A DNA stretch of 64,000 nt, from assembly GCA_013151865.1 (NCBI GenBank), contig JAADHN010000066.1:8311-72310 (forward strand), given 5' to 3'. This stretch comes from Kiritimatiellota bacterium (GTDB taxonomy: Bacteria; Verrucomicrobiota; Lentisphaeria; Oligosphaerales; JAADHN01). A program made the position numbers and the translations under genes. This document shows positions 5,621 to 62,996 of this stretch, piece after piece; positions within the stretch are counted from its first letter, which is position 1, and every line of letters begins with the position of its first letter. The notes beneath the pieces are model-generated. The model had not been told where the DNA came from, did not search any database, and was given only the letters and a program-made list of their open reading frames with translations.

Positions 5621-5729
5621 GATTGATCCAGCTTGCCGGTCGTCTCGAGATTGCTTGGGGGGCAGGCGCCTCGCCGGCACTGCAAGTTCGTCGGGACCAT
5701 TCTGAGACGCACTGCAATGGGGACTCGGT

Positions 5730-6539: not shown

Positions 6540-6543
6540 CGTT

Positions 6544-8645: not shown

Positions 8646-8661
8646 TGGACACCTTCTTGCT
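8646..8661 (+). promoter_or_regulatory. Possible sigma54 -24/-12 element
   Basis: TGGACACCTTCTTGCT has the GG-N10-GC spacing. It lies in the long, AT-richer divergent intergenic region upstream of the NYN/kinase/regulator operon. Confidence 0.25.
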
Positions 8662-9074
8662 GGCAATGCGCGGGAGTCACCATATAGTATAAAGGCCGTG
8701 TATTCAACACGGCTCTGCCGTGAGCGCCGCGGCAGGCTTGGTTTCTTGTCCGGACGCGGTTTTTTGCGTCTGCTCGCCGATGTACCGCACGAAGAACGCT
8801 TGTCCGGCGCAACGTGTTTTGCCAGCGACCCGTTTTTGACGTTCGAACGTTTGAAGAACTATCACCACATTACAGTACGCAATTGCCGTCATTGTGCCGG
8901 ACTCACCAGAGTGAACCGCTGCGGCCCCGGGATTTGATGCAGGGCCGTCTTCTGCAGCCGTCGTCCTCCCTTTCAGCCCGCATCGCCCGGCCTTTCACCC
9001 GCGCGTCGCGGACGACGACCGGCACAACTCGCGCGGCCCTGCACCGTTGCCGTCATCGCAAGGAAACCAATACA

Positions 9075-10313: not shown

Positions 10314-10381
10314 TGGTCCTCCCCGAAGGGGGTCGCGGTTCGCGAACGGTCAGGTCGAGTTTCCGTGGAGGCGGCGGCCCC

Positions 10382-36705: not shown

Positions 36706-36849
36706 GCACTTCGCGAACCGTCCTCGCGAGAGACGGTCCCCCGGGGGCCCTCGACTCGACGGCGGCCGTGTGCTGCGCCGGAGGAACAGGGACGCACTCA
36801 GTCACGCTACGTGAGCCCGACAGGACCCTCACCCAATTGGGAACGAGGC

Positions 36850-38949: not shown

Positions 38950-39084
38950 GCGTCAGTGACGCCCGGCCGCGCGACAACTCCGGACGGACGTCATAATACG
39001 CACTCGCCCGAAAACGCACCGCAACAACGGGTACTCCTCCCCGGAGTGCGCAGGGCCTCGACATACACAGTCGCCCCGGTCCCC

Positions 39085-40563: not shown

Positions 40564-40920
40564 CGATTTCAGGCCTCCTGCTCCGGGCCCAGGGGATTCC
40601 GGCCCGATTGCCGTCGTGTACGGATGCGGAGAGGACGATAGCGCCGGCTCACTGGGCTTGCAAGAAACTGCCGGGGATTCGCCTGTGCTCATCCTCCCCG
40701 ACCGACGGTGTCAAACTCGAACAGAAAGGATTATAGTCACAGGCAGCCCCCTGCGTAATCGCACGTGTCCCTGGGATGGCATCGCCCGGATCGCGGCACA
40801 GCTACTGCTGCTGCACGGAGACGTTACCGAAGCATCGAAGAAAACGCAGCGCGCGTCGGCACGGCTTGAAAACTCCCGTTCCCGCCGCTGCAGACCCCCG
40901 ACAATAGAGAGGTCCGCCAC

Positions 40921-45425: not shown

Positions 45426-45505
45426 CCAGGGCCATAGGCCGTTCTCGGCCCCGTCGGCGTCGGCAGGAAAAGCGCGGGCCTTTTGCGGAATTCCCACCGC
45501 TCGAT

Positions 45506-47692: not shown

Positions 47693-48195
47693 GTGATGCG
47701 TTCAGGTGCGGCCATGACCTCGGATGGCGACGAGCCGAGCGAAAGGACGACCGCGCACCGTCGCGTCTCCACACCGGCACGGTCGGCGGCCGCCGACGCT
47801 GGGGCGTGCGACGCCCGCACACCGAAAAGCAGGCCGCTGGGCAGGACAACCCTCGCACGGCACGCACTATAAACCGGACATGGGTCGAAACAATCTGTCG
47901 GGCTGATCCGCGCCCGGTCGAAATCCCGGCAACACGAAACCATCGAAGTTCGACACGACACGTGCGCCGGAGAACCGAGGGTGCGCGGCACGACTCCCCC
48001 CGGAGTACGGTCATCGGTTCAGGCTTTGGCCGATCTCCGGCGACTTCCGCCCGTGGCCCGGCGACCCCCGCTGCGACGGCGCTCCGCCCCGCCCCGGAAA
48101 TCGACCCCCTTGGGCAGGTCGGACCGCACCCGAAAAACCGACTTGGGTCGATGACGCAGTTCCGGAATGAAGTGCACAATCGGGAGAATTCGATC

Positions 48196-51100
48196 ATGAA
48201 AACGATGCGGACCCTGCTCGAACGCGTTCGGGGCCGGATTCATTGCGCAGTGCACAATGCGGGGCGTCGTTCCCGATTCGGACTGTACGCGTTCGCCGCG
48301 TGCGGCTTCTCGGTCGCGGCGACGCTGGCCGCGGACGTCAACCCCGTGAGCAACGGCGGGTTCGAGGACGTGGGGCCGGACGGACGACCGCGGGACTGGG
48401 AGTACGTGGGCCGCGAGGCCCGGCTGGTTCAAGATGCGCACAGCGGAAAACGGGCCATCCTGCTTCGGCGCACGCCGGAGATCGCAGCACAGAAAGGACT
48501 GGAAACCGGCCTCAATCGCGCTTGGCGGCCGCACTCCGGGGAACGGGGCCGAATGCTGACCGAACGCAAGGGCGGCATCCGTTTCTTTTACAAGGTAGTA
48601 CGGGCGGACGCGGACGCGCAACTTCGCTTCTTTGTGATCCCCATGAACGCGGGGCCCATGGAAAACACGGGGTCACCCCGGGCCGTGTTCGAAGTGCCGA
48701 AAACCTACGCCGGAGACGGCAAGTGGCACTTGGGCATTGTAGGATATGATTTCACGAAAGGCACGGCCTGTCGGTGGGTGCAGGTTTCGCCGCGCATCAT
48801 GGGGCAGGGGACGGCGGAATGGCTCCTGGACGACATCCAATGGGTCCCGAACGCCGGCCCGGTCCCCTCGATTCGCGACCTGCGCGTCTACGAAACACCC
48901 GGGGCGGAAGGCCGATCTTGCACCCTGCGCCTGGTAGTCCGCAATGCCGGGGATCGACCGCTGAAGACCCGGGCGGTGCTCTCGCTTTCCAACGATTTGC
49001 GCGTCCGGGAAAGCTCGACGCGCACGGTGGGACCGTTGGCGGCGCAGGGCACGACCGCCATCGAGTGGACCGTGCTCGGGGCACGCTCGCCGCGCAGCAG
49101 GGCCGCGGTACGATTGACGGCGGGCGAGATCGAGGCCACCCGCTCTGTCCGTTTTGCGCCGAAAATCGTCGAATCTTGGATCGAAACCGGGCGGTTTGTG
49201 CTGTGGCCCGGGGCACGGACACAGGCCACGCTGGTCCTGCGCAACACCGGGACCTGCACTGCCGACGGAATCACCGCCCGCATCGCGGTCGGGGCCGGGT
49301 TGCGCGTTCTCGGCCCGGCGGCGGTCTCAGGGCGAAGCGCCGTCCCGGGAAAGCTCACCCGCATCGGGTTTCAAATCGAGGCGACCGCCCAAACCCCGGT
49401 CACGGAGGTCCGCTGCACATGGCAGAGCGTCGCGGGCGAATGCGGCGAATGCCGAGCGGAACTGGTGGTGGGCGCGCCCGCACCCGCTGCGCCGCAAGAC
49501 GCACCCAAGGACGCCCTGCGACTCACCGGCAGAACAGCGGAAATCATTTTCCCGCGAAACGGATTCGGTTACGGCATCGGCTGGGTGTATGCCCGCCCAT
49601 CCGGGGAACCGATCGGCGTGATCCCCCGGCTGGGCCGCATTGTATCGGGCCCTGCGGACACCGCGGCAGTCCCCCTGTTTGCGGACTCCGCAAAGCGCGG
49701 TCCTCCCGGTCCGTGCCTGGGCGGCAAAACGGACGGAAGCAACAGAGGCGGGAGCAGTCTGACCTTCCTGGTGAAAAACGGCGCCTTGGCGAAGTGCGGA
49801 CTCCCGGAAGGCGTGTCGATCCGATTCGCCGTCCCCGGCTCCGGGGCGAGCGGAGCGGCGGCACGGCTCATTACGGTGACCGTCCGCGCCCGAGTCACCC
49901 GCCCTGGGGCGGTTCGTGCGCTGGATGGGCCGTTTCTCTGCCCGGGCGAAGGCGCGTCGTCGTCGAAGCGCACCGAAGCACTCTTTCCCGGCCTCGAGTG
50001 GTTGCAGGGAGACGAGTACTCGTCTTGGGACACCGACATCGCGTTCGACCACCCGGACCGGTTGCGCAGCGCGCCGCATCCGCACAAGATCACGATCCCT
50101 CTTATGGTCGTGCGCCGAAACCGCGTCGCCACCGGGTTGTTCTGGCATTCCCGCGCGACCTGGAACGACGGTGTGCAACCCCGCGATTTTGCGCCGGATG
50201 AAAGCGCCGTGGACCGACCATGCGCCGTGTTCGCCGCACCGGACCGGTTTGCCGGGCACGCGTCGTCGACCCTCGGGCTTTTCCTCCCGACGATCCCGCA
50301 CTGGATCCAACCGAACGAGCGGGCAGCGGCACGCGCATGGCCGACTCAGGGCGCCGCGCCGTTGCGCATCCGCTTGGTGTACGGCTTCTACGTCAATCCG
50401 GCAAGCGATTCCGTACTCGATGCGGTACTGGATTGGGCACGCGTTTTCGGCTTCCCGGCACCCCGGCGCTCACCTCGCGCCCGCGGGCCGGCGCCGGCGC
50501 CGGGTTCAGTGGACGTATACCGCGGGCCCGGTCTGCCGGACTGGGCACGGGCCGCCGATTTCAGCGAACACTGGTCCCCGCCTGCGCCCGGTCAATGGGT
50601 CGATGAAGTCGAGTGGAGCATGAATGCTTATCTCAAAAGCTTGTGGGACCCGGAGCAGCACGGTTGGTGGAATTACTGGGGAGGACCGGGATTGACGCAT
50701 AAGACCGGCGCGTACCCGGCTTTTCTCTTGGACTGCGTCATCGGCGAACGTTTGACCGACGACCCGGAACTCGGCAAACGCCTGAAGGCACTGCTGGACG
50801 ATGTGCGCGGCCGCGCACCCGAGTCTGTGCCCGGCGGCGACGACATGGGGTTTCGATTCGGCGACCCGACCGCGGCACTTGCGGCATCCGCAGTGCAAGC
50901 CGGGGACATAATGCGTGCCCAACCGGCGGAGGGCGGTTGGCGATTCCGCCCTCGGATCGGCAAAGGCGGCGTATTCCGGGGAAGGGACTACCGGTTGCTC
51001 GGGCGGGACGGGGAGGAAGGAAACGGACTCACAGCGCGCCGGGCCTATAACATGCTGTTCGTGAGCCGGATGACCGGGGATGAAACGTTGCTTTCCGCGG

Positions 51101-52419
51101 GCCTCAAGGCTTTGAGAAGCATGGAGAAGTTCCGAATCCCACGTGCGGCCCAAGTGTGGGAAGTGCCGGTGCATACCCCGGATATCCTGGCTGCCGCCGA
51201 CGCCTGCGAAGCTTACCTGGAAGCCTATCGAATCACCGGCGACAAACAATGGCTGGACCGGGCCGTGTATTGGGAAACCGCCGGCCTGCCCTTCCTCTAT
51301 CTTTGGGACGTGGACGCTTTCCCGTTCCTCCGCTATGCCTCGATTCCCGTATTCGGCGCTACCTGGAAACGCGGCTCCTGGTTTGGGAGGCCCGTGCAAT
51401 GGAACGGATTGCGCTGGGCTTTCGCCGCGCAGAAACTCGCGGAAGTCGATTCCTCCCTGCCCTGGCGGATGCTCGCCGCCGGCGTGACCATTTCCGCCAT
51501 GTATCAACAGGGGTCGGACCCCGAAAGCAAGAGTTTCGCCCTTTGGCCGGACAGCATCAGCGCGGAAGACGCACGGAAATCGGCATGGGTCTTTCCCCCC
51601 GTTCACATCCTCGAAAACGTGTACAAACTCATGGGGTACGAACCGCGCCCGACTACGGTGGCGGTCCCGGCCGGGGCGGGGAAAATCCGCATCGATGCCT
51701 GCGGGCGTATCGGAGCGCCGCAATACGCCGGTGGGGTGCTGCGGTTCGCACTTTCGGCCCCGCCGCCGTTGCCGACGCAGGTTCTGGTGATCGGAATATC
51801 GAGCCCCACGGAAGTGCTCGTGGACGGGAAAGCCCTGCCCCGGGCCGACACGGCGGAAAGACGTGTAAGAACTGCCGCGTGGTGGACGTACGACAGGGAT
51901 GCGCGCCTGCTCCGGGTGCGCCCCAACGTGACCGGGAAACACACGATTGCGCTGCGCTCGGTGCGGTGGCGGGCAGGCCGAGTCCTGCCTCAAGTCCAGA
52001 CGCGATTGGATTTCGATTTCGATTCCGGACGCCAGGGCTGGCGTCCCGCGCACGACATCGCTGCGGCAGACGCCGCGGACGGCGTGCTGGACATCACCGT
52101 GAACGGACCCGATCCGTACCTGGTCCGCCCCATGTGCCGGATCGACGGGAACATGATCGCGAGAATCCATGTGCGTATGGCCGTGGACGGTGGAAACCGG
52201 GCGCAATTCTACTGGACCACGGCGAAAGCCCCGGCCATGTCCGAAGCCCGGGCCGCCTGGGTCGCCGTGAACGCGGACGGCAGGATGCACGACTATTCGT
52301 TCGATGTGGGCGCCCACCCTTTGTGGCGGGGGCAAATCATCACGGCCGTACGACTGGATCCGACGAACGGGGTGAAACAGGCCCGCGCCCGCATCGACTT
52401 CGTTCGCGGCGATCCCTGA
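48196..52419 (+). CDS. Very large secreted hypothetical protein (CBM-like N-terminus, Ig-like repeats, probable (alpha/alpha)6 barrel, C-terminal beta-sandwich)
   Basis: Signal peptide, NGGFED, Ig-like LVVRNAG/LVLRNTG, AYLEAYRITGDKQWLDRA (alpha-toroid signature) and C-terminal WRGQIITAVRLDP. Confidence 0.65.
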   Translation: MKTMRTLLERVRGRIHCAVHNAGRRSRFGLYAFAACGFSVAATLAADVNPVSNGGFEDVGPDGRPRDWEYVGREARLVQDAHSGKRAILLRRTPEIAAQKGLETGLNRAWRPHSGERGRMLTERKGGIRFFYKVVRADADAQLRFFVIPMNAGPMENTGSPRAVFEVPKTYAGDGKWHLGIVGYDFTKGTACRWVQVSPRIMGQGTAEWLLDDIQWVPNAGPVPSIRDLRVYETPGAEGRSCTLRLVVRNAGDRPLKTRAVLSLSNDLRVRESSTRTVGPLAAQGTTAIEWTVLGARSPRSRAAVRLTAGEIEATRSVRFAPKIVESWIETGRFVLWPGARTQATLVLRNTGTCTADGITARIAVGAGLRVLGPAAVSGRSAVPGKLTRIGFQIEATAQTPVTEVRCTWQSVAGECGECRAELVVGAPAPAAPQDAPKDALRLTGRTAEIIFPRNGFGYGIGWVYARPSGEPIGVIPRLGRIVSGPADTAAVPLFADSAKRGPPGPCLGGKTDGSNRGGSSLTFLVKNGALAKCGLPEGVSIRFAVPGSGASGAAARLITVTVRARVTRPGAVRALDGPFLCPGEGASSSKRTEALFPGLEWLQGDEYSSWDTDIAFDHPDRLRSAPHPHKITIPLMVVRRNRVATGLFWHSRATWNDGVQPRDFAPDESAVDRPCAVFAAPDRFAGHASSTLGLFLPTIPHWIQPNERAAARAWPTQGAAPLRIRLVYGFYVNPASDSVLDAVLDWARVFGFPAPRRSPRARGPAPAPGSVDVYRGPGLPDWARAADFSEHWSPPAPGQWVDEVEWSMNAYLKSLWDPEQHGWWNYWGGPGLTHKTGAYPAFLLDCVIGERLTDDPELGKRLKALLDDVRGRAPESVPGGDDMGFRFGDPTAALAASAVQAGDIMRAQPAEGGWRFRPRIGKGGVFRGRDYRLLGRDGEEGNGLTARRAYNMLFVSRMTGDETLLSAGLKALRSMEKFRIPRAAQVWEVPVHTPDILAAADACEAYLEAYRITGDKQWLDRAVYWETAGLPFLYLWDVDAFPFLRYASIPVFGATWKRGSWFGRPVQWNGLRWAFAAQKLAEVDSSLPWRMLAAGVTISAMYQQGSDPESKSFALWPDSISAEDARKSAWVFPPVHILENVYKLMGYEPRPTTVAVPAGAGKIRIDACGRIGAPQYAGGVLRFALSAPPPLPTQVLVIGISSPTEVLVDGKALPRADTAERRVRTAAWWTYDRDARLLRVRPNVTGKHTIALRSVRWRAGRVLPQVQTRLDFDFDSGRQGWRPAHDIAAADAADGVLDITVNGPDPYLVRPMCRIDGNMIARIHVRMAVDGGNRAQFYWTTAKAPAMSEARAAWVAVNADGRMHDYSFDVGAHPLWRGQIITAVRLDPTNGVKQARARIDFVRGDP

Positions 52420-52427
52420 CCGTCCCT

Positions 52428-52631
52428 CAGAACTCGGTAACGCTGTAAAGCAGAATGCCCTCTTTTTTTTGTCACAGTCACCGCCAGTGTGGGCGACTAC
52501 TTTACAGAAGATGACGCTAAGCTCAGATTCGCGCGAAACTGTAACGCAGTCGCCCACACCCATTCCCGGGAGTCCGTCCAAAAAAGGGAATCCAACTTTA
52601 CAGACCTCCAAGCTCAATCTACTGAGGTCTG
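52428..52631. mobile_element. MITE copy 1 (204 bp)
   Basis: Left end CAGAACTCGGTA; the right end reverse-complements to CAGACCTCAGTA (10/12 match). Flanked by GTCCCT/GTCCAT, an imperfect 6-bp TSD. Near-identical to 59534-59742. Confidence 0.85.
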
Positions 52632-52750
52632 GTCCATGGATGGGACGCGCCCCGGGCCGAATCTGGAGGATTCTGTCAGGAATATTGGGTTTGTTTGGAA
52701 CATGTGGAAATGCTCGGTGTCGGAATGGTTGTTACAAGGAGATTTCGTTT

Positions 52751-53206
52751 ATGATCCTGGGAACGCGGCCAGTCCGTACCATGCCGCTGTTGGTGTTGGG
52801 GTTGCTTGCCTGTGTCCTGGTCAACGCAGGGGGACACCCACGCGTCGTGGTTTGCTACGGAATGGATGGCCATGTTTCATTGGAATCGACTTCCGGGGCA
52901 CGCTGCAGCCAGGTTTCCGAGGTGATCGTTCGCCCGACTGCCGCGCCGCAGAGAAATGTGTCTCTCACCGCGGCCGCCGGTCATTGCGCGCCTTGCGTTG
53001 ATATCCCCATTCCGTTCAGTGGATTTGAACAACAGCCTTTTCTCACGCAGGGCCCTTCCGTACCAAGCCTTGTTCCGACCGGCCCGGTCTCGGCTGATGC
53101 TTCTCCCGTGTTCACATCACTCCCTGCCGTCCGTCTTGTTCCCCCATCTTCCCTCGACTTCAGTCTGGCGCTCACGTCCCTTCGCACCGTCATCCTTTTG
53201 ATCTGA
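52751..53206 (+). CDS. Small exported Cys/His-containing leader protein with a Pro/Ser-rich tail ending LRTVILLI
   Basis: AAGGAG RBS, signal/TM helix, VVCYGMDGHVSLE and HCAPCVDIPI motifs. First gene of the MITE-bracketed operon. Confidence 0.7.
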   Translation: MILGTRPVRTMPLLVLGLLACVLVNAGGHPRVVVCYGMDGHVSLESTSGARCSQVSEVIVRPTAAPQRNVSLTAAAGHCAPCVDIPIPFSGFEQQPFLTQGPSVPSLVPTGPVSADASPVFTSLPAVRLVPPSSLDFSLALTSLRTVILLI

Positions 53207-53376
53207 CTTCCCCCCTCTCTTCCCGGTCGTCCGTATCCCCCTGAGCTGCCGACCTTGCGATGGCAGCACACTCTTGGCACTCTTGGCATCCCCGGCTTTG
53301 CCCACGCCCGCTGGCGTGTGTAGGTCGCATCCAACCTCCCAGAACGAGAGAATCTTAACAGACGCAGGCCAGCACC

Positions 53377-55335
53377 ATGTCTCAAAAGTTCCTGATATTC
53401 GTGACCGTTCTGGCAGTCGCAGCCCTGACGCTGCTGCTTGTCCTGCTGGCTGTCAGAGAAGAGCAAAGTACGAAAAGGATCATTGTCGAACGGGACAAAC
53501 GCATCGGTGAGAATGTCGTCGCCACCTTTACCGGCGGCGAGGTCACGACCAGCGAACTGCGCAAATTCATCAATGAACGAACCCGACGATCGGGCGAACA
53601 CGCTGCTTGCGACAAACACAGCTACGATCATTCCAAATGTTCGCCCGACGAAAAATGCGAGAACCATCCCCTCAATTCGGTCGAATCCTATCGGGCCCTG
53701 CTCAGGCAATTGGTCATGGACAAGATGGTTGAACGCTGGATCCGTGAAAAAGGGATGCTGTCTCGAAAACAGGTTAAACACCGATTAAAGCATCTGGTTG
53801 AAGAAATCAACTTGGGCGCCCTCGCGGGGGAAATGCACGCCGACAAGGTGAAACCCGACAAAATCGAGATGCGCCAGTACTATGAGGAACACAAAGATGA
53901 GTACAAGAATCGTCCTTTCAGCGAAGTGGAAGAGGAAATCGAGGGAATCCTGGTCGCTCGGAAACAGAGTGAGTTCATTCCAAAGTATATCGAGGAACTG
54001 AAAGCCAATGCGGTCATTGAGAGGAACTATGACCTGATTAAAGTCCCGGAACCGACCGAGGCGGAAATCCGAGCTTACTACGACCAGCACAGCAAGGAAT
54101 ATGTCCGCGCAGAGTTCCTGCGCATTCAAATTCTGCGAATCGGAGCCGAAGACGAAAAAGCGGGTCGGGCAAAAGCCGAAAAGGCCCTGGCCAAGTTGCG
54201 CGCCGGGGCAGACTTCGAAGAGGTGGCCCGAGACTTTGCCGACGACAAGACCGCGCCCATCGAGCTGGTGGAGCGCGGCCGGAAAAGCAAACGGTTCGAG
54301 GAACGAGTGTTTCGCTATTACGCCGGCGAACTGACGCCGATTTTCAAAGACGGCGGATTCTTCTATATCGTGAAGATCCTTGAACGGGAAGGAAAGAAAA
54401 AGAAGTCGCTTCCCGAGGTATTGGCGGAGGTTACCGCAGCCGTTCGTCGACAGAAAGAAGAAGAGAAATTCAAGTATAACAAGTATGACGCTCTTTTCAG
54501 CGTGCACGGCAAACGTTTTACGGTCGAAGAATTCCAGCAAGAGTTCTCGGAACTCTCCCCTGAAGAACAGAGGCAATTTGCCAGCTTCAAGGCCAAAAAG
54601 AACCTGCTCGATCAACTCATTGTCCGGCAATTGCTGATGGAAAAAGCCGAGGACAAAGGCGTGGAAGCTGAGAAGCGGAAAGAGATCGAGGAACTCAAGA
54701 AACGTGCCCTCCAGCAGATGCTGCATAAGGAAGAAGTGGACGAAAAAATCGAGGTCAGCGAAAAAGAGGCCAGAGAGCTTTATGAAAAACGGAAGAACGT
54801 CCTGATGGAACCGGCTAAAGCCAAGGTCAGCGTGATCCGGATCGGTACCGGGTTCAGCGCAGACGAACGCAAGCGGGCGCGGGAGAAAATCGAGGCGGCC
54901 CAAAAGAAACTCAACGCCGGGGCTGATTTTGCCGAAGTGGCCAAGGAGTACTCCGAGGATTGGACCGCCACGCGCGGCGGAGAAATGGATCGGTGGATCT
55001 ATGAAGGCGCCGGTCATCTCGGGGAAATCTACGAGCACGGATTTCACCGGTACGTTTTCGCTCTGCAACCCGGTGAGACGAGCGACTTCTTCGAGTTCCG
55101 CAACAACTATTGGATCGTCAAAATGCGAGAACACCGCCCGAGCCGCCGGCAGACGTTCGAGGAAGCGCGGCCCACGATCGAAGCATATATCAAGGCCCTC
55201 AAGCACGAAGAGCGCATGTTCGAACTGCAGAACGAACTGTTGGAGAAGTCGCGACTGGTCATCCGGGACTTTGTCTTGAGCCGGATGCTTCAGGCCGAAT
55301 CCACCGGCCATGAACACGAACGGGCACTGTACTGA
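53377..55335 (+). CDS. Membrane-anchored PrsA/SurA-like foldase with two parvulin (PpiC)-like domains and His/Cys insertions
   Basis: N-terminal TM helix, GADFEEVARDFADD, GADFAEVAKEYSED..T..RGG and LQPGETS motifs. Insert EHAACDKHSYDHSKCSPDEKCENH. Confidence 0.8.
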   Translation: MSQKFLIFVTVLAVAALTLLLVLLAVREEQSTKRIIVERDKRIGENVVATFTGGEVTTSELRKFINERTRRSGEHAACDKHSYDHSKCSPDEKCENHPLNSVESYRALLRQLVMDKMVERWIREKGMLSRKQVKHRLKHLVEEINLGALAGEMHADKVKPDKIEMRQYYEEHKDEYKNRPFSEVEEEIEGILVARKQSEFIPKYIEELKANAVIERNYDLIKVPEPTEAEIRAYYDQHSKEYVRAEFLRIQILRIGAEDEKAGRAKAEKALAKLRAGADFEEVARDFADDKTAPIELVERGRKSKRFEERVFRYYAGELTPIFKDGGFFYIVKILEREGKKKKSLPEVLAEVTAAVRRQKEEEKFKYNKYDALFSVHGKRFTVEEFQQEFSELSPEEQRQFASFKAKKNLLDQLIVRQLLMEKAEDKGVEAEKRKEIEELKKRALQQMLHKEEVDEKIEVSEKEARELYEKRKNVLMEPAKAKVSVIRIGTGFSADERKRAREKIEAAQKKLNAGADFAEVAKEYSEDWTATRGGEMDRWIYEGAGHLGEIYEHGFHRYVFALQPGETSDFFEFRNNYWIVKMREHRPSRRQTFEEARPTIEAYIKALKHEERMFELQNELLEKSRLVIRDFVLSRMLQAESTGHEHERALY

Positions 55336-55371
55336 CCGAGCACATACTGCTGTTGAAAGGAGAATGCCGAC

Positions 55372-56904
55372 GTGGAAAGAAAAGAGCAAACGGTCCTGAT
55401 CAGCATCGGCGCCAACGGATTACTCATTTCCCTGCGTTTTCTGCTCGCCTTCGTGTCCGGAAGTCTGGCCCTGAAAGCCAATGCCTGGCACTCCCTGGCC
55501 GACGTGTTCGTGCTGGGCGTCGTTTACATTGGCTTGTTTGTGGCACGACAGCAGGACCAGCGTTACGCCGGGATCATCGCATGGATGGAGAACATCGTCG
55601 CCATCTTCGTCTCGATCTTCATCTTTTGGATGGGCTTCGAGCTGTTCGGAGAGGCCGTGGCGGGAGAGGCCGTGGAACTGGCCTACGTCGTCCCATCAGC
55701 AATCGGTGCGTTTCTGGGCGTATGCATTACTTACTTCATGGGGCGGTACATGCTCTTCGTGGGGCACGCGACCGGCTCGCCCAGCCTGATTGCCGCGGGG
55801 TCTCATGCTCGAATGGACATGTTCTGCTCTACGGCGGTGCTGCTGGGGCTGGTGGGAAGCATTTTCGGCCTGGTCGGCCTCGATAAGGTTGCCGCCACCA
55901 TTGTGGTGGTCTTCATCTTCATGGCGGCCATCGAAATCTTCATGGCCAACGTCCGTGCCTTGCTCAGCGGTCGCGCCGAACTCGCCCATGAGCACGCGCA
56001 CGGCCTGAACAAACCCGGCAAGCTGGTCACGGCGGGCATCGCCATACTGATCGCGGCCGGGTACCTCGGCTCGGGAGTCTACTACGTCCAGCCGGACGAA
56101 CAGGCGGTGGTGCGCCGGCTCGGCAAGATCCTCGAACGCCCCTTCGGTCCCGGCCTGCATTATCGCCTGCCGTACCCGATCGACCGGGCGAACATGGTCC
56201 GTACCGGCACGGTGCGCGAAGTCGGGACCCGGAAACGCCTGCTGCTGAGCGGCGACGAGAACCTCGTGGAGGTTGACGTATCCGTGCACTATCGCGTGTC
56301 CGATCCGGTGAAATACCTCCTCAAAGCGGCCGCACCCGACACCCTTGTGCGCGAAGCGGCTCAGGCCAGCGTGCGCAACGCCGTGGGGCATCGACGAATC
56401 GACGATCTGTTGACCACCGGCCGCGAAGACGTTCTGGCAGAGGTCCGGAGGACACTCCAAGAAGAACTCGACAGGAGCGACACGGGTATCGAAGTGGTCG
56501 GTGTCCTCCTCTTGGAACTGCGCCCCCCAGAGGACGTCGTCGATGCCTTCTATGACGTAGCCAGTGCACGGGAAGACAAAGCCACCTACATCAACGAAGC
56601 CCATTCGGCACGTAATGCCTTGGTGCCCAAAGCACGGGGCGAAGCCGCCGAGAAAATCCTCGCCGCAGAAGCTTACAGAGAACAAAAAGTGCAGTACGCC
56701 GCGGGCGAAGCAGGTCGTTTTCTCAGCAAGCTCGAAGAATACGCCAAAGCCCGCGACATCACTGAAGTCCGTTTGTATCTCGAAGCCATGGAAAAAGTCT
56801 TGCCGGGCGTCAGAAAATTCCTGGTGGACGGTGACGTCGAGACGGGAGAGACCGACCTCTGGTTTGTTGGTAAGGACGCCGGAAACCTGTTTGGCACGAA
56901 ATAA
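55372..56904 (+). CDS. Cation diffusion facilitator (CDF) TM domain fused to an HflK-like SPFH domain
   Basis: GSLALKANAWHSLAD (TM2), SPSLIAAGSHARMD (TM5), linker HEHAHG, then YYVQPDEQAVVRRLG...PGLHYRLPYPID...LLSGDENLV...PKARGEA...RLYLEAMEKVL. Confidence 0.88.
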   Translation: MERKEQTVLISIGANGLLISLRFLLAFVSGSLALKANAWHSLADVFVLGVVYIGLFVARQQDQRYAGIIAWMENIVAIFVSIFIFWMGFELFGEAVAGEAVELAYVVPSAIGAFLGVCITYFMGRYMLFVGHATGSPSLIAAGSHARMDMFCSTAVLLGLVGSIFGLVGLDKVAATIVVVFIFMAAIEIFMANVRALLSGRAELAHEHAHGLNKPGKLVTAGIAILIAAGYLGSGVYYVQPDEQAVVRRLGKILERPFGPGLHYRLPYPIDRANMVRTGTVREVGTRKRLLLSGDENLVEVDVSVHYRVSDPVKYLLKAAAPDTLVREAAQASVRNAVGHRRIDDLLTTGREDVLAEVRRTLQEELDRSDTGIEVVGVLLLELRPPEDVVDAFYDVASAREDKATYINEAHSARNALVPKARGEAAEKILAAEAYREQKVQYAAGEAGRFLSKLEEYAKARDITEVRLYLEAMEKVLPGVRKFLVDGDVETGETDLWFVGKDAGNLFGTK

Positions 56905-56937
56905 CCCAGACACATTCGCAACGAAAGGAAAAAGCCG

Positions 56938-57912
56938 ATGGACGGAACAAACGGAAAAGCAACCTGGTTCAAACTGGCGGCGGGCCTGGGGGTGTTCTTC
57001 TTCGCTCTCCTGATCAGCAACCTTGTACTGTTTGTGGTCGATACAACCGAATATGCCGTGATCACGCAGTTCGGTCGCCCGGTGCGGACAATCCTGGAGC
57101 CGGGACTCCACTGGAAACTGCCCGAACCCATCCAGCTCTTGCGGCGCTACGACAACCGGCTTCAGGTTTACGAAGCGGGACAAGTCGAGTTTCTCACTCA
57201 AGACAAGAAAAGTATCGTCGTGGACTATTACGCCTCCTGGAAGATCACCGACCCGTTGGCGTTCCTCAAGACCGTGCGCGACAAGATCGGCGCAGAAGCT
57301 CGCCTGTCGGACGTGGTCTCGTCCGTACTGGGTGTGGGCGTGGGGCAATTCGAACTGAGCGATCTGATCAACACGGACCCCGCCCGCATGAAGCTGCACG
57401 AAATGCTGGCCGCCGTGACCCAGCGCTGCAACGAGCAAACCAGCCGGTACGGCATCCAGATCGTCAACGTGGAAATGCGCACCCTCAATTTCCCGGAGAA
57501 AAATAAACTGAGCGTGTTTCGGCGTATGAAAGCCGAACGGGAACAGATGGCCAGGAAGTACCGGTCCGAGGGAAGCGAAGAGGCGGCCAAGATCCGCGCG
57601 GAAGCCCGCAAAGAGGAGAAAACGATCCTGTCCGAAGCCTACCGAAAAGCGGAAACAATCAAAGGCGAAGGAGATGCCGAGGCAATCCGTATTTATGCCC
57701 AGGCCTTTCAGAAAGATCCGGAGTTCTACCGTTTCATCAGAACTCTCGCGGCGTACGACAAGATCATAGACGACAAAACGACGGCCATTCTACCGGCCGA
57801 CTCGGACCTGCTGAAGTACTTCGCCCGGGGGAGAAGCAGCCCCGCGAAAAACCGGGGCGGAAGCAAGCGCGCCATGGTCCCGAACAGACGCCCGGAAGGA
57901 GCCGAAAAATGA
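56938..57912 (+). CDS. hflC: HflC-like SPFH protein
   Basis: AVITQFGRP, PGLHWKLP, FLTQDKK, RMKAERE.MA..YRSEG and GEGDAEAIRIYA.AF.KDPEFY.FIRTL.AY motifs. Confidence 0.92.
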   Translation: MDGTNGKATWFKLAAGLGVFFFALLISNLVLFVVDTTEYAVITQFGRPVRTILEPGLHWKLPEPIQLLRRYDNRLQVYEAGQVEFLTQDKKSIVVDYYASWKITDPLAFLKTVRDKIGAEARLSDVVSSVLGVGVGQFELSDLINTDPARMKLHEMLAAVTQRCNEQTSRYGIQIVNVEMRTLNFPEKNKLSVFRRMKAEREQMARKYRSEGSEEAAKIRAEARKEEKTILSEAYRKAETIKGEGDAEAIRIYAQAFQKDPEFYRFIRTLAAYDKIIDDKTTAILPADSDLLKYFARGRSSPAKNRGGSKRAMVPNRRPEGAEK

Positions 57913-58895
57913 GCGAGATCGAACGCCACGACAACCCATGGGACGATATTCGGCGAGCTTTCGGCCATCTGAAACCGACCGTGCTTGTGCCGATCGCCGC
58001 GCTGGTCCTGGGCGCCGTCTACCTGGGCACGGGCGTCTACATCGTCAATCCCGGCGAGCAAGGGGTGGTCAAACGGTTCGGGCGAGTCATCGCGACTGTG
58101 GATGAAGGCGCCCACTATCGACTCCCGTGGCCGGTGGACACGGTCGAAGTCGTCAATGTGAGCAAGGTGCGGCGCGCAGACATCGGCATGGTCCTTCCCG
58201 AACACGAACATCCGGCGTTTCTGCCGGAAAAACTGCAACTGCTGACCGGGGACGAGAACCTCATCAACGTCGAAGCAATCATCCACTACAAAATCAAAGA
58301 TCCGGCCCGTTTCCTCTATCGCACTAACTTCGGCGAGGAAAGATTGCTGCACAACGCCGTCGGCTCGGCCCTGGTTGAACTCATCGGTCAAATGGCGGTG
58401 GACGACATCCTTACCACGGAGAAGATCAGTGCCCAGGCAAGAATCCTACGGAAAGCACAGAAGGTCCTCGATGAATACGAAAGCGGTCTGCAGATCAGCG
58501 CCTTCAATATTCGAGCCATCGTGCCGCCGGAGGATGTGGCGGACGCCTTTCGGGACGTCCAGACCGCCAAGGAGGATCGCGAGCAGGTGATCAACCAGGC
58601 CAGAGGCTTTGCCAACAGCATCCTTCCCGAAGCCCGGGGACGGGCCCGGGAGTGGACCAGCGAGGCCGAAGGCTACCGCACCGAGGTGGTCAACCGCGCC
58701 GAGGGGGACGCACAGAACTTCGAGGCAGTGCTGGCCGAGTACCAGAACGACGCCCGGATGTACAGCGAGGACATTACCCGCTATCGACTCTACCTCGAAA
58801 CCATGGAAAAAATCCTCCCACGCGTCAAGAAGTACGTTCTTCGGGCGCGTGCCGGCGGCGAAAAAGTGAACTTGCGCTTCGTCAACAGGGAATAG
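57909..58895 (+). CDS. hflK: Second HflK-like SPFH protein
   Basis: ATGA overlap with hflC. YIVNPGEQGVVKRFG, HYRLPWPVD, LLTGDENLI, AFRDVQTAKED, PEARGRA and RLYLETMEKIL motifs. Confidence 0.9.
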   Translation: MSEIERHDNPWDDIRRAFGHLKPTVLVPIAALVLGAVYLGTGVYIVNPGEQGVVKRFGRVIATVDEGAHYRLPWPVDTVEVVNVSKVRRADIGMVLPEHEHPAFLPEKLQLLTGDENLINVEAIIHYKIKDPARFLYRTNFGEERLLHNAVGSALVELIGQMAVDDILTTEKISAQARILRKAQKVLDEYESGLQISAFNIRAIVPPEDVADAFRDVQTAKEDREQVINQARGFANSILPEARGRAREWTSEAEGYRTEVVNRAEGDAQNFEAVLAEYQNDARMYSEDITRYRLYLETMEKILPRVKKYVLRARAGGEKVNLRFVNRE

Positions 58896-58922
58896 GCGTT
58901 TCAAAGGACCGGAGAGATCGAG

Positions 58923-59096
58923 ATGCTGGAAATAGTGCAACTGGTCGCAATGGTCGTGCTTCTTGTGGCGATGACGGGCATGCTCGTATTGGTTGCCCGT
59001 CTTGCGCGGGTCGTGGAACGCTGGGAACGACGGCTTTCCCCAGCGTCGAGACAAACCGGTGATCGAGAAACGAAAGGAGGTGATCCGAGTGGATAA
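58923..59096 (+). CDS. Small single-TM protein (57 aa), not in the ORF track
   Basis: GGAGAG RBS; MLEIVQLVAMVVLLVAMTGMLVLVARLARVVERWERRLSPASRQTGDRETKGGDPSG*. Its stop overlaps the next start. Confidence 0.65.
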   Translation: MLEIVQLVAMVVLLVAMTGMLVLVARLARVVERWERRLSPASRQTGDRETKGGDPSG

Positions 59097-59244
59097 AGTG
59101 GGTGCAATCCTGGACGGCGTTGCCACGCTTATCGTGGGCGTCGGCGTACTGGTGGTCCTTCTCAAAACGGGCGGCTTGGTCGCTGCTTTGGGAGGACGGC
59201 TCAACCCCGAAAACAAAGAAGAAAACGCAACCAGCCAGAGTTGA
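59089..59244 (+). CDS. Small single-TM protein (51 aa), paralogue of 59279-59410
   Basis: Near-perfect SD AAAGGAGGTGA followed by GTG; MDKVGAILDGVATLIVGVGVLVVLLKTGGLVAALGGRLNPENKEENATSQS*. Confidence 0.75.
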   Translation: MDKVGAILDGVATLIVGVGVLVVLLKTGGLVAALGGRLNPENKEENATSQS

Positions 59245-59278
59245 ACATGGAGTCCTGACTTGAAAGGAGACAGGTAAA

Positions 59279-59410
59279 ATGAGCAATGTGGGAGAAATCC
59301 TCAGTAATGTGGCAACGCTGCTGGTCTCGATCGGGGCCGTGGTCGTGCTGTTCAAAACCGCGGGCCTCATCACGGCGCTTTCCGAACGCATCAAGGAGTG
59401 GAAGGAATAG
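59279..59410 (+). CDS. Small single-TM protein (43 aa), not in the ORF track
   Basis: AAAGGAG RBS; MSNVGEILSNVATLLVSIGAVVVLFKTAGLITALSERIKEWKE*. Aligns without gaps to the preceding peptide. Confidence 0.75.
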   Translation: MSNVGEILSNVATLLVSIGAVVVLFKTAGLITALSERIKEWKE

Positions 59411-59533
59411 CCCGTCGGCTGTTTCATTCGACCGTCAAGGGCAGTCGCTCCGCAGCAACCTGCGGGGCGCTGCCCTTTCCGCTTCTGGGCAAAGTCGACC
59501 TCTGTGATCCACAACCCCCGGCAAATCGTGCTC

Positions 59534-59742
59534 CAGAACTCGGTAACGCGGTAAAGCAGAATGCCCTCTCCTTTTTTTGTCGCAGTCACCGCCAGCGTGG
59601 GCGACTACTTTACAGAAGATGACGCTTCCAAGCTCAAATTCGCGCGAAACTGTAAGGCAGTCGCCCACACCCATTCCCGGGAATCCGTCCAAAAAAGGGA
59701 ATCCAACTTTACAGACCTCCAAGCTCAATCTACTGAGGTCTG
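59534..59742. mobile_element. MITE copy 2 (209 bp)
   Basis: Same TIRs and orientation as copy 1. Flanked by a perfect 6-bp TSD GTGCTC (59528-59533 and 59743-59748). Confidence 0.88.
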
Positions 59743-60304
59743 GTGCTCATGTCCGATGCGAGGCATGGCAACTCGGATGATCCCATCTGGGTTGCTTCTC
59801 GCAACAATTCACTCGCCGAGCCGAACGAATCGACCTCCCGAAACGACCGTACGCGGACAGTGACGACGCCCACACGCAACTCCTCGCCCTCGGCGTCCGA
59901 CAGGCGCCAGCCACTCCGGCGGGGGGACCGCCTGATCGGCGAGCCGGCGGAGCAGAAAAAACGTCAGCGCGGAAACCAAGACCACAGGCCTGCACCGTGG
60001 CAGGCGCCGGGTGTGAACGCCACGCTTGTTTTGTACCAAAACCGTTACCTGCGCGACCCCACCTCACGGTATGGAAGAAAACGCAGTAAGGCATTGGTTG
60101 GTGAATAGATAAGACAACAAGTCTTCTACCTTTTGCCGGGGCCGGGCCGTTGCCGAAAGTGGTACACTTTTAACTTGGCGGTGAGACCGGGGGGCGCCAC
60201 GTCCTCTCCACGCTCCGGCCCCACGCAAAAATGCCGGACAGGGCACCGCGCCACCGCCACTCCGAAAACGGAAAACGACGCACCTTTTTTGGCAATCGCC
60301 GCTT

Positions 60305-60352
60305 GCATACCTCGGCATCCGTGGTATTATAACATCGACTGCCGAGGTATGC
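60305..60352 (+). promoter_or_regulatory. Probable PadR autoregulatory operator(s) overlapping a sigma70-like promoter
   Basis: Perfect 13-bp inverted repeat GCATACCTCGGCA...TGCCGAGGTATGC, which can also be read as two tandem palindromic sites. It overlaps TTGCAT...TATTAT, about 40 bp before padR. Confidence 0.6.
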
Positions 60353-60392
60353 GTGGACGACCTGCGGAGTTCGCAACCGGGAGACCGCAACC

Positions 60393-60731
60393 ATGGAATT
60401 CACACCCGAATTGATCAAAGGAACCGTAGTGCCCATCGTGCTGAAGCTCCTGGATGAGCGGCCCATGTACGGATACGAAATCATTAAGCTCGTGAACCGG
60501 CGAACCGAGAACGCGTTCCAGTGGAAGGAGGGGACGCTGTACCCGTGGCTGCACCGCCTGGAAGCAGACGGCCTGGTCCGCGGCGAATGGCAGGTCGCGC
60601 CGTCGGGTCGCCGCCGCAAGTACTACACCCTCACTCGACGAGGGCGTACCGCCATGGTGAGCAAACTCGAGGAATGGCGGGCACTCTCGACCGCGGTGAA
60701 CACGTTACTCTTGGGGCCGGTTACAACATGA
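60393..60731 (+). CDS. PadR family transcriptional regulator (short subfamily 2)
   Basis: LIKGT, MYGYEI, EGTLYPWLHRLEADGLV and RRRKYYTLT..G motifs. Confidence 0.92.
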   Translation: MEFTPELIKGTVVPIVLKLLDERPMYGYEIIKLVNRRTENAFQWKEGTLYPWLHRLEADGLVRGEWQVAPSGRRRKYYTLTRRGRTAMVSKLEEWRALSTAVNTLLLGPVTT

Positions 60732-60788
60732 GGCGACAGCATTGTCGGACCAATCCGTCCGATTATTCTTCCCGTCGGGAGGTCTCCC

Positions 60789-62996
60789 ATGAATGAACCG
60801 AATCGTGAGGGAATCCTGGACCGCCTGACCGAGCCCCTGCAGGACGACCCCGAGCTGCGGCTCGACGTCCGGGCCGAGCTGGCAGCACACCTCGAGGACA
60901 AGGCGTGCGAACTCCGCGAACAGGGGACCGCCGCGGAAGCGGCGCGCAACGAAGCGTTGCGTGCTCTCGGCGCCCCCGCGGAGATCGGCGCCGACCTGCT
61001 GGTTGCCAACCGACCGCGCATGAAACGTCGTGCCCGCATTCGCTTGGCGCTGCGCGCCTTGGCCGTGCCTCTGGCCATCGTTGCCGCACTCTGGTGCGCG
61101 GGCATGGGACAACTGCTGGATTATGCCGCCTCGGTTGACATGCTGACCGCAAATGCGATGACACCGCCTTGGTTACGCCGGAAAGGGCTCCGGGCAGGGC
61201 CGAAGCCCTTCACCCCGGAGCAAGAACTTGTCCTCCACGGCGACCGTTCCCGGAAAGGGCGCGCAACACAACAGCGGGCAATCTGGGAACGGTGGCCGGA
61301 CAACCTGACGTATCTGCGCAATTACGCCACGTATCTTCTCGTCGATTACGGACAACTCGGTGAATCACCGACGGAGCGTTTGAAGAAGTTCGAATCCGAG
61401 ATGCGTATGGCCATGCGCAAAGATCCGGAGAACGCGCGGTACCATCACCTTCTTGCCGCCAAAATGCTCGAACAGGCCGCGGAGATCAAAAAGGGACCCA
61501 CCGGAAAAGCGAAGGCGGACCGCCGATCTCCCCGATACCGCCTCGAAGTCAAAGACCGGGACCTGCTCGACCGGGCCATGGCGGAATTCCGGAAAGGCCT
61601 CGCGAAACCCATGCTCCGGCGGGGTGCGGCCGAGATGCTGAGCGAGCGTCTCCGGATCCTGGGACCGCCGCGCCGTCGACTGGACCAGATTCGTCGCATC
61701 GCGCTGGCCGCCGCGGTGCTTCTCCCCGATCTGGCTGTCTATCGAAACCTGGCCCGCGCTGCCGGACCGTACGCGGGATTGCTGGTGGCGGAACACCGAA
61801 AAGACGACGCGGCCCCATTCCTCGACGCCTGGGAAAAACTGGCGCTGCAACTCAACGACGATGCCTTCACTCTCATCGACGAACTGGTCGTCCTTGCCGT
61901 CATCGACCTCGGTTCGTCCCAAGCCGCGGAAGTCTGTGAACGCGCCGGGACACCGGACCGAGCCGAGGCAATCCGACACCGAGCGGAGGCCCTTGGCGCG
62001 GTCATCCGCGACTGGCGCCGAAGCGTTCAGGACAAGACACACGGCGAGCAACTGAAACACCAACTCCGTCAGCATGCCGGCATCCTGAGTTCTCTGCTGC
62101 TGCCCGCCCTGGGCAGCGAGTCTCTCTCGGATATGGACGCGCTGGCTCCGGACCGTCTGCTCGATTACACGCTGGCGGAGGAAGGTCTCGCCGGGGCGAT
62201 CAGCCTGACGCTCCTGGCGCTGATGCTGGGAGCGCTGGGCGCCGCACTCTGGCGGCGCTTGCTCGACCGCAAGCGACCGCCCCCGCTGTACCTGTTGCCG
62301 GATGCCCGCTCGCTGGCCGGGATCGTTCTGTTCGGTATTGCGGCTCCGGCCTTGGTGTACGTGATCCTGACGCACTGGACTTCCTTCGGCGGCCGGGAAT
62401 ACTCGTTACCCTATCAGTGGCCGAGATTCATGGCGCAGGCCACGGTCCTCCTGGCCGTCGTGACTGCATCGTGCGGGGGCCTGGCCGCCAGTTGGGCGCG
62501 CCGGCGCTGTGAAGCGTTGGGCTTGCCTTGTCCCCGCCCTTGGCCAACGAAGCGGATGCGGCGTGTTTTCACTGCAAGCGTCTTCCTGCTTTTCCTCGTC
62601 AGCCTTCTCCCCGCCGAGGCGCTCAGCGGCACGGAGTTCGATTGGGCGACGATCACGGTCGTCGTTCTCTCCGCGCTCGTGGGCGTCATGCTGTTTCTTC
62701 GGGGGGCCGTTGCACTTGCGATGGCGCTTTGCGCACCGAGGGACCAAGCGTTCTACCGCGGCACGCTGGCCCGATCTCTGGTGCCCATGCTCGCCGTGGC
62801 CGTGATGGCGTGGAGCGCCGTCAGCCGTCCCTGGTTGATTCGTCAGGAAGGAGAATTGATCCGCCGGGACACGCTGATGAGCACTCCGTCCGAGGGGCTC
62901 ATCGGCTTTACCAGCGTCGAAGCACACTTGGCCCGACGGTTGAAACAGGGGGTGGAGGAAGCGGCAAAACAGCTCGGGTCGAGGCGGGGTCGATGA
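60789..62996 (+). CDS. PadR-associated membrane protein with an N-terminal permease-prefix-like domain, a large helical extracytoplasmic domain and C-terminal TM helices
   Basis: VRAELAAHLEDK...EALRALGAPAEIGADL is typical of proteins encoded after subfamily-2 padR. One N-terminal TM and several C-terminal TM helices. Confidence 0.72.
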   Translation: MNEPNREGILDRLTEPLQDDPELRLDVRAELAAHLEDKACELREQGTAAEAARNEALRALGAPAEIGADLLVANRPRMKRRARIRLALRALAVPLAIVAALWCAGMGQLLDYAASVDMLTANAMTPPWLRRKGLRAGPKPFTPEQELVLHGDRSRKGRATQQRAIWERWPDNLTYLRNYATYLLVDYGQLGESPTERLKKFESEMRMAMRKDPENARYHHLLAAKMLEQAAEIKKGPTGKAKADRRSPRYRLEVKDRDLLDRAMAEFRKGLAKPMLRRGAAEMLSERLRILGPPRRRLDQIRRIALAAAVLLPDLAVYRNLARAAGPYAGLLVAEHRKDDAAPFLDAWEKLALQLNDDAFTLIDELVVLAVIDLGSSQAAEVCERAGTPDRAEAIRHRAEALGAVIRDWRRSVQDKTHGEQLKHQLRQHAGILSSLLLPALGSESLSDMDALAPDRLLDYTLAEEGLAGAISLTLLALMLGALGAALWRRLLDRKRPPPLYLLPDARSLAGIVLFGIAAPALVYVILTHWTSFGGREYSLPYQWPRFMAQATVLLAVVTASCGGLAASWARRRCEALGLPCPRPWPTKRMRRVFTASVFLLFLVSLLPAEALSGTEFDWATITVVVLSALVGVMLFLRGAVALAMALCAPRDQAFYRGTLARSLVPMLAVAVMAWSAVSRPWLIRQEGELIRRDTLMSTPSEGLIGFTSVEAHLARRLKQGVEEAAKQLGSRRGR

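Follow-up and report, generated by a model that had tools for sequence, protein, structure and literature searches.

Within a 64,000-nucleotide stretch of contig JAADHN010000066.1 from a Kiritimatiellota bacterium (hereafter the window), we analyzed a gene, termed K1, in which a metal transporter domain and a membrane scaffold domain are encoded together. A six-helix cation diffusion facilitator (CDF) domain, a histidine-containing linker, a transmembrane (TM) helix, and an HflK-type SPFH domain with its coiled coil are joined in one frame. This confirmed the core of an initial annotation that had been made from the DNA letters alone. K1 is preceded by a gene for a PpiD-like chaperone and followed by genes for HflC and for a second, plain HflK, termed K2. 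We judge that K1 is probably an active metal exporter built into a ring of the HflK/HflC type. For classification, K1 is best placed in the CDF and the HflK families at once, as a combined architecture.

Both halves of K1 were matched above the family cut-offs. In Pfam, Cation_efflux (PF01545) matched residues 9 to 198 (E value of 1e-24; 87.9 bits against a cut-off of 26.6) and spanned model positions 2 to 198 of 198, which is the whole membrane-domain model. Band_7 matched residues 239 to 411 (E value of 7.7e-25). In NCBIfam, the CDF model TIGR01297 matched residues 5 to 205 with 98 bits (cut-off, 82.35) and was limited to model positions 2 to 205 of 285, the membrane part, while the hflK model TIGR01933 matched residues 236 to 488 with 236.6 bits (cut-off, 159.4). 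The profile scan that the initial annotation had proposed as a check thus returned Cation_efflux and Band_7 and no ZT_dimer, and the HflK domain was found in frame with the transporter as claimed. The gene starts with GTG and has the sequence AGGAG a few bases 5′ of it.

The structural comparisons agreed with the profile matches. An AlphaFold model built on 94 homologues had a mean predicted local distance difference test score (pLDDT) of 82.8. It placed six helices in the CDF half (residues 3 to 29, 32 to 59, 63 to 97, 106 to 134, 137 to 164, and 170 to 199), and an alpha/beta domain (236 to 384) followed by a helix of about 70 residues (390 to 459) in the HflK half. With Foldseek, the N-terminal half superposed on the membrane domain of YiiP (8f6k_B and 8f6h_B) with a root mean square deviation of 3.0 to 3.1 Å over 196 to 204 columns, and the six-TM CDF core of the initial annotation was thereby upheld. 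The C-terminal half matched Escherichia coli HflK (7vhq_E; E value of 9.3e-22, 38% identity) and also 9cz2_XA and 7wi3_B. By sequence, K1 matched the HflK chain 7vhp_E of the PDB with an E value of 3.1e-49, and the identity to E. coli HflK was 37 to 38%.

The same fusion was found in many other proteins. In a word-indexed search of 5.8 billion proteins, K1 had 843 matches, and the best 120 of these were examined. The precomputed Pfam column listed both families in 119 of the 120, at 90 to 100% query coverage, and phmmer with the two halves of K1 found both halves in all 120. An exhaustive search of 1.84 billion representatives at 50% identity gave 12272 matches at an E value of ≤0.001, including 1331 at ≤1e-30; phmmer found both halves in 86 of 148 further representatives listed. 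In our family alignment, A2, Cation_efflux and Band_7 were present in 94/94 members. The initial annotation had allowed for homologues that are always two separate genes. Instead, the homologues are overwhelmingly single genes, and only four proteins shorter than 280 amino acids (aa) matched the CDF half. At least two of these look frameshifted (P0277 and P0278) and one looks truncated (P0280). The fourth, P0279, has 217 aa, ends in the His linker, and may be a real stand-alone CDF form.

By their labels, the metagenome-assembled genomes that carry the fusion include members of Planctomycetes, Victivallaceae, Lentisphaeria, Omnitrophota, Chloroflexota, Desulfobacula, and Entotheonellia. Carriers among isolates include Desulfosporosinus metallidurans, Anaerotignum, and Pygmaiobacter massiliensis. 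NCBI and JGI label the fusion proteins as HflK only; therefore, a class of putative metal exporters is hidden in the annotations. We found no description of a CDF-HflK fusion in a full-text literature search, with subscription journals outside its coverage. In a term search of the 2009 survey of prokaryotic SPFH proteins (PMC2636767), the words “cation,” “ATPase,” and “transporter” had 0 occurrences. Recognition of the architecture as a system appears to be new, while the sequences themselves are already public as HflK.

Sequence alignment paired K1 residues 16 to 200 with residues 23 to 210 of Shewanella FieF/YiiP. The two HxxxD motifs pointed out in the initial annotation, HSLAD in TM2 (H40 and D44) and HARMD in TM5 (H145 and D149), fall on the TM2 and TM5 metal ligands of site A in Shewanella YiiP. 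Among 79 diverse fusion representatives, H40, D44, and H145 were each kept in 74 and D149 in 73, and in A2 all four residues are nearly invariant. Over 93 homologues, the mean identity to the window protein was 0.49 for residues 1 to 200 compared to 0.47 for residues 236 to 490. The closest relatives gave 0.93 for the CDF half versus 0.86 for the SPFH half, and then 0.78 versus 0.74. The CDF half of K1 is at least as conserved as its SPFH half. Because the site A ligands are kept and the CDF half is conserved, the sequences argue for a functional metal site over a decayed anchor.

The C-terminal domain of canonical CDF proteins is missing, as the initial annotation had stated. Pfam gave no ZT_dimer match in K1 at an E value of ≤0.1 and none in the 94 members of A2 at ≤0.01; therefore, K1 has no site C. 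The histidines of the TM2-TM3 loop that make up site B in YiiP have no counterpart in the K1 alignment. K1 is thus like YiiP/FieF and other CDF exporters in its six-helix membrane domain with TM2/TM5 site A ligands but unlike them in lacking ZT_dimer with site C and the site B histidines, and its C terminus runs on into HflK. Site A itself also differs, being D-D/H-D in YiiP and H-D/H-D in K1. As a rule of thumb, Zn-type selectivity goes with H-D/H-D at site A. The cargo would be a divalent transition metal, with Zn2+ as a first guess.

A ZT_dimer C-terminal domain is typical of the CDF family but not universal. MmCDF3 from Maricaulis maris (Russell & Soulimane 2012) is mentioned in PMC4995437 as a CDF without a cytoplasmic domain, and a title cited there states that it binds Zn and Cd. 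By this description, MmCDF3 is like K1 in having a CDF membrane domain without the C-terminal domain. However, MmCDF3 stands alone, whereas the membrane domain of K1 is covalently joined to an SPFH scaffold.

The 16 linker residues between the two halves sit where the CDF C-terminal domain would begin. In the model, residues 203 to 215 have a pLDDT of <50 and form a disordered stretch, and three K or R residues lie within the segment from 196 to 219. The His linker of the initial annotation is present in K1 as HEHAH, but it does not extend to the whole family. We sorted 203 fusion proteins by the distance from TM6 to the SPFH domain, with TM7 counted in; these proteins are mutually related, so the counts are not independent. 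A short-linker class (≤45 aa) held 135 of the 203, with at least two His residues in 122 and HxH in 78. The long-linker class (46 to 95 aa) held the other 68, with at least two His residues in 19, and has an extra basic, partly amphipathic stretch. The possibility that a CDF C-terminal domain is hidden in the long linkers was rejected, as no ZT_dimer was found in the long-linker members scanned. The His-rich linker after TM6 is the sole remaining candidate for a cytoplasmic metal-capture site.

The seventh TM helix that had been proposed is also present, but it is not an addition to the transporter. K1 residues 216 to 486 align with residues 78 to 344 of E. coli HflK, and TM7 falls inside this alignment. 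TM7 is therefore HflK's own anchor, and the CDF domain stands in for the cytoplasmic N-terminal tail of HflK, which in E. coli has about 78 residues. The HflK_N domain (PF12221) had no Pfam match in K1 and is present in the plain HflK P0228. The initial annotation had a scaffold replacing the CDF C-terminal domain; the event is better described as a transporter replacing the HflK tail.

CDF membrane domains start and end in the cytoplasm, as established for YiiP. HflK, the SPFH3 group of Hinderhofer et al. 2009, has a cytoplasmic N terminus, one TM helix, and an outward-facing SPFH domain. In K1, K and R residues are found at the N terminus, in the TM2-3 and TM4-5 loops, and in the TM6-7 linker, and the TM3-4 loop is acidic. 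This distribution is consistent with both ends of the CDF domain being cytoplasmic. From the CDF topology and the charge distribution, we infer that the SPFH part of K1 lies on the outer face of the cytoplasmic membrane. The E. coli HflK/HflC-FtsH complexes (7vhp, 7wi3, 9cz2, and 9paw) share with K1 the TM anchor, the SPFH domain, and the long coiled coil, and hflC is the next gene in both. PDB entry 9paw lists 12 HflK and 12 HflC chains. The genome of the window has one FtsH gene.

The genes around K1 form a recurrent cassette (Table 1). Neither this operon, with its chaperone and second HflK, nor the sister fusions described below had been noticed in the initial annotation. In the eight loci taken from species-representative genomes, a PpiD-like gene lies directly upstream of the fusion in 8/8, and HflC and then K2 follow in all seven of those with downstream DNA. 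The K2 start overlaps the HflC stop by 4 nucleotides (nt). Four of the eight loci (L001, L002, L003, and L005) have a second PpiD-like gene downstream of K2; the 64-kb window has none at that place.

With the family alignment, we found 80 metagenome loci, some of them near-duplicates of each other: 32 with CDF-HflK, 42 with plain HflK, and 6 in which the first HflK is cut by the contig end. HflC is the next gene in all 26 fusion loci that leave 600 nt or more for it, and it is present in 39 of the 42 plain-HflK loci. K2 was found in 23/23 fusion loci with room for it and in 0/42 plain-HflK loci; ordinary hflK-hflC thus differs from the K1 operon in having no second HflK. The PpiD-like gene was found on one side of the triplet in 18/18 fusion loci where 1.5 kb or more is available to either side, and in none of the 42 plain-HflK loci. 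Over all fusion loci the count is 23 of 32, and the other 9 are without DNA on one side. The K1-HflC-K2 triplet, in most cases accompanied by a PpiD-like gene, is therefore a unit distinct from ordinary hflKC. As a separate observation, in two loci of one metagenome lineage (L053 and L054, positions 1394 to 2287) a CDF gene of the ordinary kind, encoding 297 aa, precedes the CDF-HflK fusion by about 2 kb. Plain and fused CDF proteins can therefore coexist at one locus.

The PpiD-like protein has an N-terminal TM helix and a partial NCBIfam match to PRK10788 (peptidylprolyl isomerase). Just past the TM helix, three Cys and four His residues lie within 23 residues (75 to 97; nt 53599 to 53667). 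This cluster occurs in 10 of 12 aligned PpiD-like homologues and in both the upstream and the downstream paralogues of the close loci. We treat the cluster, a possible metal site at the outer face of the membrane, as a lead for metal hand-over, not as evidence.

Three small open reading frames (ORFs), each encoding a single TM segment, follow K2. They have good ribosome-binding sites, and the second and third are paralogous. Homologous small ORFs were found between K2 and the next gene in 7/7 close loci (the window, L001 to L005, and L008), and the 43-aa ORF is highly conserved in L001 to L005 and L008. They are absent from L007, a Chloroflexota locus that keeps the triplet. The three small ORFs probably belong to the operon.

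We found HflK domains related to that of K1 joined to metal exporters of three unrelated superfamilies, namely, CDF, P1B ATPase, and SO_0444. The genome of the window (6.2 Mb; completeness, 97%) has 10 matches to the hflK model, and every one of them belongs to one of three triplets, on contigs C15 (the window's genes), C24, and C82. The first gene on C24 encodes a P1B ATPase (TIGR01525, 558.6 bits; cut-off, 346) with an HflK domain at its C terminus (hflK, 165 bits). HflC and then K2 follow it, as they follow K1. When the SPFH part of the C24 protein served as the query, 7 of 8 matches were P1B ATPase-Band_7 fusion clusters, its own cluster included. P0242 is another P1B ATPase-HflK fusion (TIGR01525, 614 bits; cut-off, 346). 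Permeases of the ArsP_1 fold are fused to HflK domains close to that of K1 in P0243, P0251, P0238, and the fragment P0226, and P0243 passes the SO_0444 Cu/Zn efflux equivalog NF033936 with 352 bits against a cut-off of 300. P0270 to P0275 were also grouped among the P1B-ATPase or SO_0444 (ArsP_1)-HflK fusions.

In the protein encoded by the first gene on C82, a divergent HflK is preceded by about 300 aa that contain several hydrophobic helices. This N-terminal module had no Pfam match, and its best ESM Atlas score, 0.81, was uninformative. A separate P1B ATPase with a His/Cys-rich N terminus is encoded directly after the C82 triplet. Neither the C24 nor the C82 locus has a PpiD-like neighbor. 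As a side observation, a relative (G302) has frames of 644 to 657 aa with a weak hflK match, which may represent a locus of the C82 type.

We placed the SPFH parts in a tree of 67 rows (IQ-TREE, quick search, posterior mean site frequency model) rooted on HflC. Ordinary HflKs were basal, and the K2 proteins formed one clade with a Shimodaira-Hasegawa approximate likelihood ratio (SH-aLRT) of 99. Transporter-fused HflKs formed one clade for 39 of 40 rows (SH-aLRT of 85), with one CDF row outside; within this clade the ATPase-fused HflKs were monophyletic (SH-aLRT of 92). A FastTree of 163 rows was less orderly, with the fused clades at the base. The P1B-ATPase and SO_0444 fusions are thus like K1 in carrying an exporter N-terminal to an HflK-type domain and in clustering with the CDF-fused HflKs, but they belong to other transporter superfamilies with other energy coupling.

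We propose that K1, HflC, and K2 assemble into a ring or cage like that of E. coli, in which divalent-metal/proton antiporters would form part of the ring wall. The sister fusions to P1B ATPases and SO_0444 exporters favor metal export as the partner under selection. The ring would hold the transporter as an oligomer, which is the job of the lost C-terminal domain in YiiP. K2 would occupy some places in the ring and thereby keep the bulky transporter modules apart, since a ring with a six-helix bundle, or a P-type ATPase and its large cytoplasmic domains, at each of twelve places would be crowded. The purpose of such a ring is the least certain step; we favor local export near the quality control and folding machinery, namely, FtsH and the PpiD-like chaperones of the cassette. 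A link to the folding of exported proteins is suggested because the PpiD-like genes are conserved in the cassette. The C-terminal domain of YiiP holds the dimer together and responds to metal (PMC4995437). PpiD of E. coli is a periplasmic chaperone anchored in the membrane at SecYEG, and the proteins degraded by FtsH, itself under modulation by HflK/C, include SecY and YfgM, a partner of PpiD (PMC8082313). The initial annotation had suggested that oligomerization and regulation are delegated to the SPFH scaffold. We regard this as plausible and in keeping with the conserved K1-HflC-K2 operon. A working analogy, with no family relation, is found in eukaryotic stomatin-type SPFH proteins, where the title of entry 9zd2 names aquaporin 1 in complex with endogenous human stomatin. 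There, too, an SPFH oligomer is found with a transport protein, but the association is noncovalent and cytoplasm facing, and the partner is no metal exporter.

Several results weigh against a metal exporter built into the ring, or narrow what can be said of it. The cassette is rare, with a full-length homologue (E value of ≤1e-70) in 2 of 301 sampled genomes of the phylum, its own included; it therefore has no core function among these relatives. At two positions that are D/E and D in most of the family, the window's clade carries N37 and A142, respectively, and its transport properties may therefore differ from those of the other members. The metal cannot be read from homology, since all named CDF equivalogs in NCBIfam (MamB, MamM, Cdf31, MntE, FieF, and ZitB) scored far below their cut-offs on K1; the best, MamB, reached 68.1 bits against 350. 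The Cys/His cluster of the PpiD-like protein is found in just 5 of 20 metagenome PpiD-like proteins. Lastly, the branch that unites all 40 transporter-fused rows in the best tree has a support of only 39, and a single K1 lineage is therefore not demonstrated. One transporter-carrying lineage with exchanged N-terminal modules is what the best tree depicts.

Other explanations would assign the CDF domain a different role. One that we consider rather unlikely is a transceptor, in which the CDF module mainly senses cytoplasmic metal, and its metal-dependent inward/outward switching, passed on through TM7 to the HflK/HflC ring, tunes FtsH proteolysis or substrate access, with net export being secondary. 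No more than about 16 residues separate TM6 from TM7, which could let movements of the TM3-TM6 pair reach the scaffold, and short-linker proteins conserve the His-rich linker. HflK/C is a known FtsH modulator, according to PDB titles and PMC8082313. However, the fusion of the same HflK lineage to P1B pumps and SO_0444 exporters fits selection for export better, and the 68 of 203 proteins with a 46- to 95-aa spacer and few His residues do not suit such a coupling.

A more far-reaching version of the exporter model strikes us as doubtful. Here, the K1/HflC/K2 cage, closed over a patch of membrane, would be a private metal-loaded chamber, with wall exporters pumping metal into the enclosed extracytoplasmic space. 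The exporters in the wall would be CDF proteins in the window's system and P1B ATPases or SO_0444 proteins in the sister systems. Membrane-anchored PpiD-like chaperones, some of which have the Cys/His cluster close to the membrane, would fold and metallate newly exported proteins inside, or the remainder of the envelope would be shielded from toxic metal. If this were true, SPFH cages would be reaction chambers with built-in supply pumps.

We consider it quite unlikely that the fusion serves proteolytic control, in which the HflK tether puts the exporter beside FtsH, its amount is set by degradation, and the small TM proteins act as adaptors. In Salmonella, the small peptide MgtR directs FtsH to MgtC/MgtA, and the small single-TM ORFs after K2 are conserved; FtsH does degrade membrane proteins such as those named above. 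Degradation of the exporter would nevertheless destroy a ring subunit too, and the Chloroflexota locus keeps the triplet without the small ORFs.

Very unlikely, in our estimate, is an inert anchor, in which the CDF domain would be a degenerate six-helix anchor or spacer of a specialized HflK that does not bind metal. The C-terminal domain and the site B histidines of YiiP are indeed gone, and two positions near site A are no longer acidic in the window's clade (N37 and A142). Yet the four site A ligands are kept in 92 to 94% of the 79 representatives, the CDF half matches or exceeds the SPFH half in conservation, and a mere anchor is improbable given the convergent fusions to metal exporters of two other kinds. 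Finally, although the assembly is a draft of 176 contigs, an artefactual joining of a CDF gene to hflK, through a frameshift, misassembly, or faulty gene calling, is hardly credible and is refuted by full-length colinear homologues that occur in isolates as well as in hundreds of independent assemblies, by the same fusion at 8 genome loci and 32 metagenome loci, and by the K1 frame itself, which stays open across the junction with no stop or frame change.

The preferred reading of K1 as an exporter built into an HflK/HflC-type ring bears on work on SPFH scaffolds, FtsH, and metal homeostasis. The clients of SPFH cages are usually weakly bound and hard to identify, and for this reason the role of bacterial SPFH cages for nearby membrane proteins is open. 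Here, the client is encoded in the same gene. K1 would thus offer a complex that is defined and can be purified, and on which the effect of an SPFH ring on a transporter can be studied. To the CDF field, it presents a natural test of how a CDF protein works when the C-terminal domain for dimerization and sensing is missing.

Table 1. Positions of K1, its parts, the surrounding cassette, and the sister loci in the same genome. Positions are those of the window unless a locus prefix is given; aa, amino acids.
Feature	Position	Strand	Size or content	Evidence
K1, CDF-HflK fusion gene	55372..56904	+	510 aa	Single open frame, profile matches, fold
CDF transmembrane domain	55372..55971	+	Residues 1-200, six helices	Pfam, AlphaFold, Foldseek, site A
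Site A codons	H40 55489-55491; D44 55501-55503; H145 55804-55806; D149 55816-55818	+		HSLAD and HARMD motifs
Cytoplasmic linker	55972..56019	+	Residues 201-216; HEHAH at 206-210 (nt 55987-56001)	Low pLDDT, K/R content, His-rich homologues
TM7, HflK membrane anchor	56020..56079	+	Residues ~217-236	Hydrophobic segment 218-237, model helix 217-233, E. coli HflK alignment
HflK-type SPFH domain and coiled coil	56077..56841	+	Residues 236-490	TIGR01933, PDB HflK 7vhp_E, Foldseek 7vhq_E
PpiD-like membrane-anchored parvulin chaperone, first gene	53377..55335	+	652 aa	Pfam Rotamase_2/Rotamase_3/Rotamase, weak SurA_N
HflC	56938..57912	+	324 aa	TIGR01932, 208.4 bits (cut-off, 134.4)
K2, second plain HflK	57909..58895	+	328 aa	TIGR01933, 237.8 bits
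Small single-TM ORF 1	58923-59096	+	57 aa	
Small single-TM ORF 2	59089-59244	+	51 aa, from GTG	
Small single-TM ORF 3	59279-59410	+	43 aa	
Contig C15 triplet			CDF-HflK (window's gene), then HflC, K2	
Contig C24 triplet	L017:5878-11031	-	P1B ATPase-HflK 7864-11031 (1055 aa), HflC 6827-7864, plain HflK 5878-6909	
Contig C82 locus	L018:4181-10479	-	HflK fusion 8521-10479 (652 aa), then HflC, 406-aa HflK (K2), P1B ATPase 4181-6235	

Elsewhere in the window, a glycyl-radical enzyme with PFL-like and Gly_radical domains is encoded at 34426 to 36705, and several large ORFs near it, over 36811 to 52419, are without a Pfam match at an E value of ≤1e-4. Around the cassette, Rfam gave no family at the gathering score over 52000 to 61000, and in a promoter and terminator scan of 52300 to 60900 the sites were no more numerous than in shuffles. 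A direct repeat of about 205 nt flanks the cassette, at 52421 to 52633 and 59527 to 59744, with 88 to 95% identity. We considered it as the boundary of a mobile unit, but this was ruled out by its 33 dispersed matches genome-wide, which lie on both strands and in several cases at contig ends. As RNA, the repeat has a 12-bp perfect stem (z score of −3.27). It looks like a structured intergenic repeat, or one resembling a miniature inverted-repeat transposable element, that is not specific to the operon.

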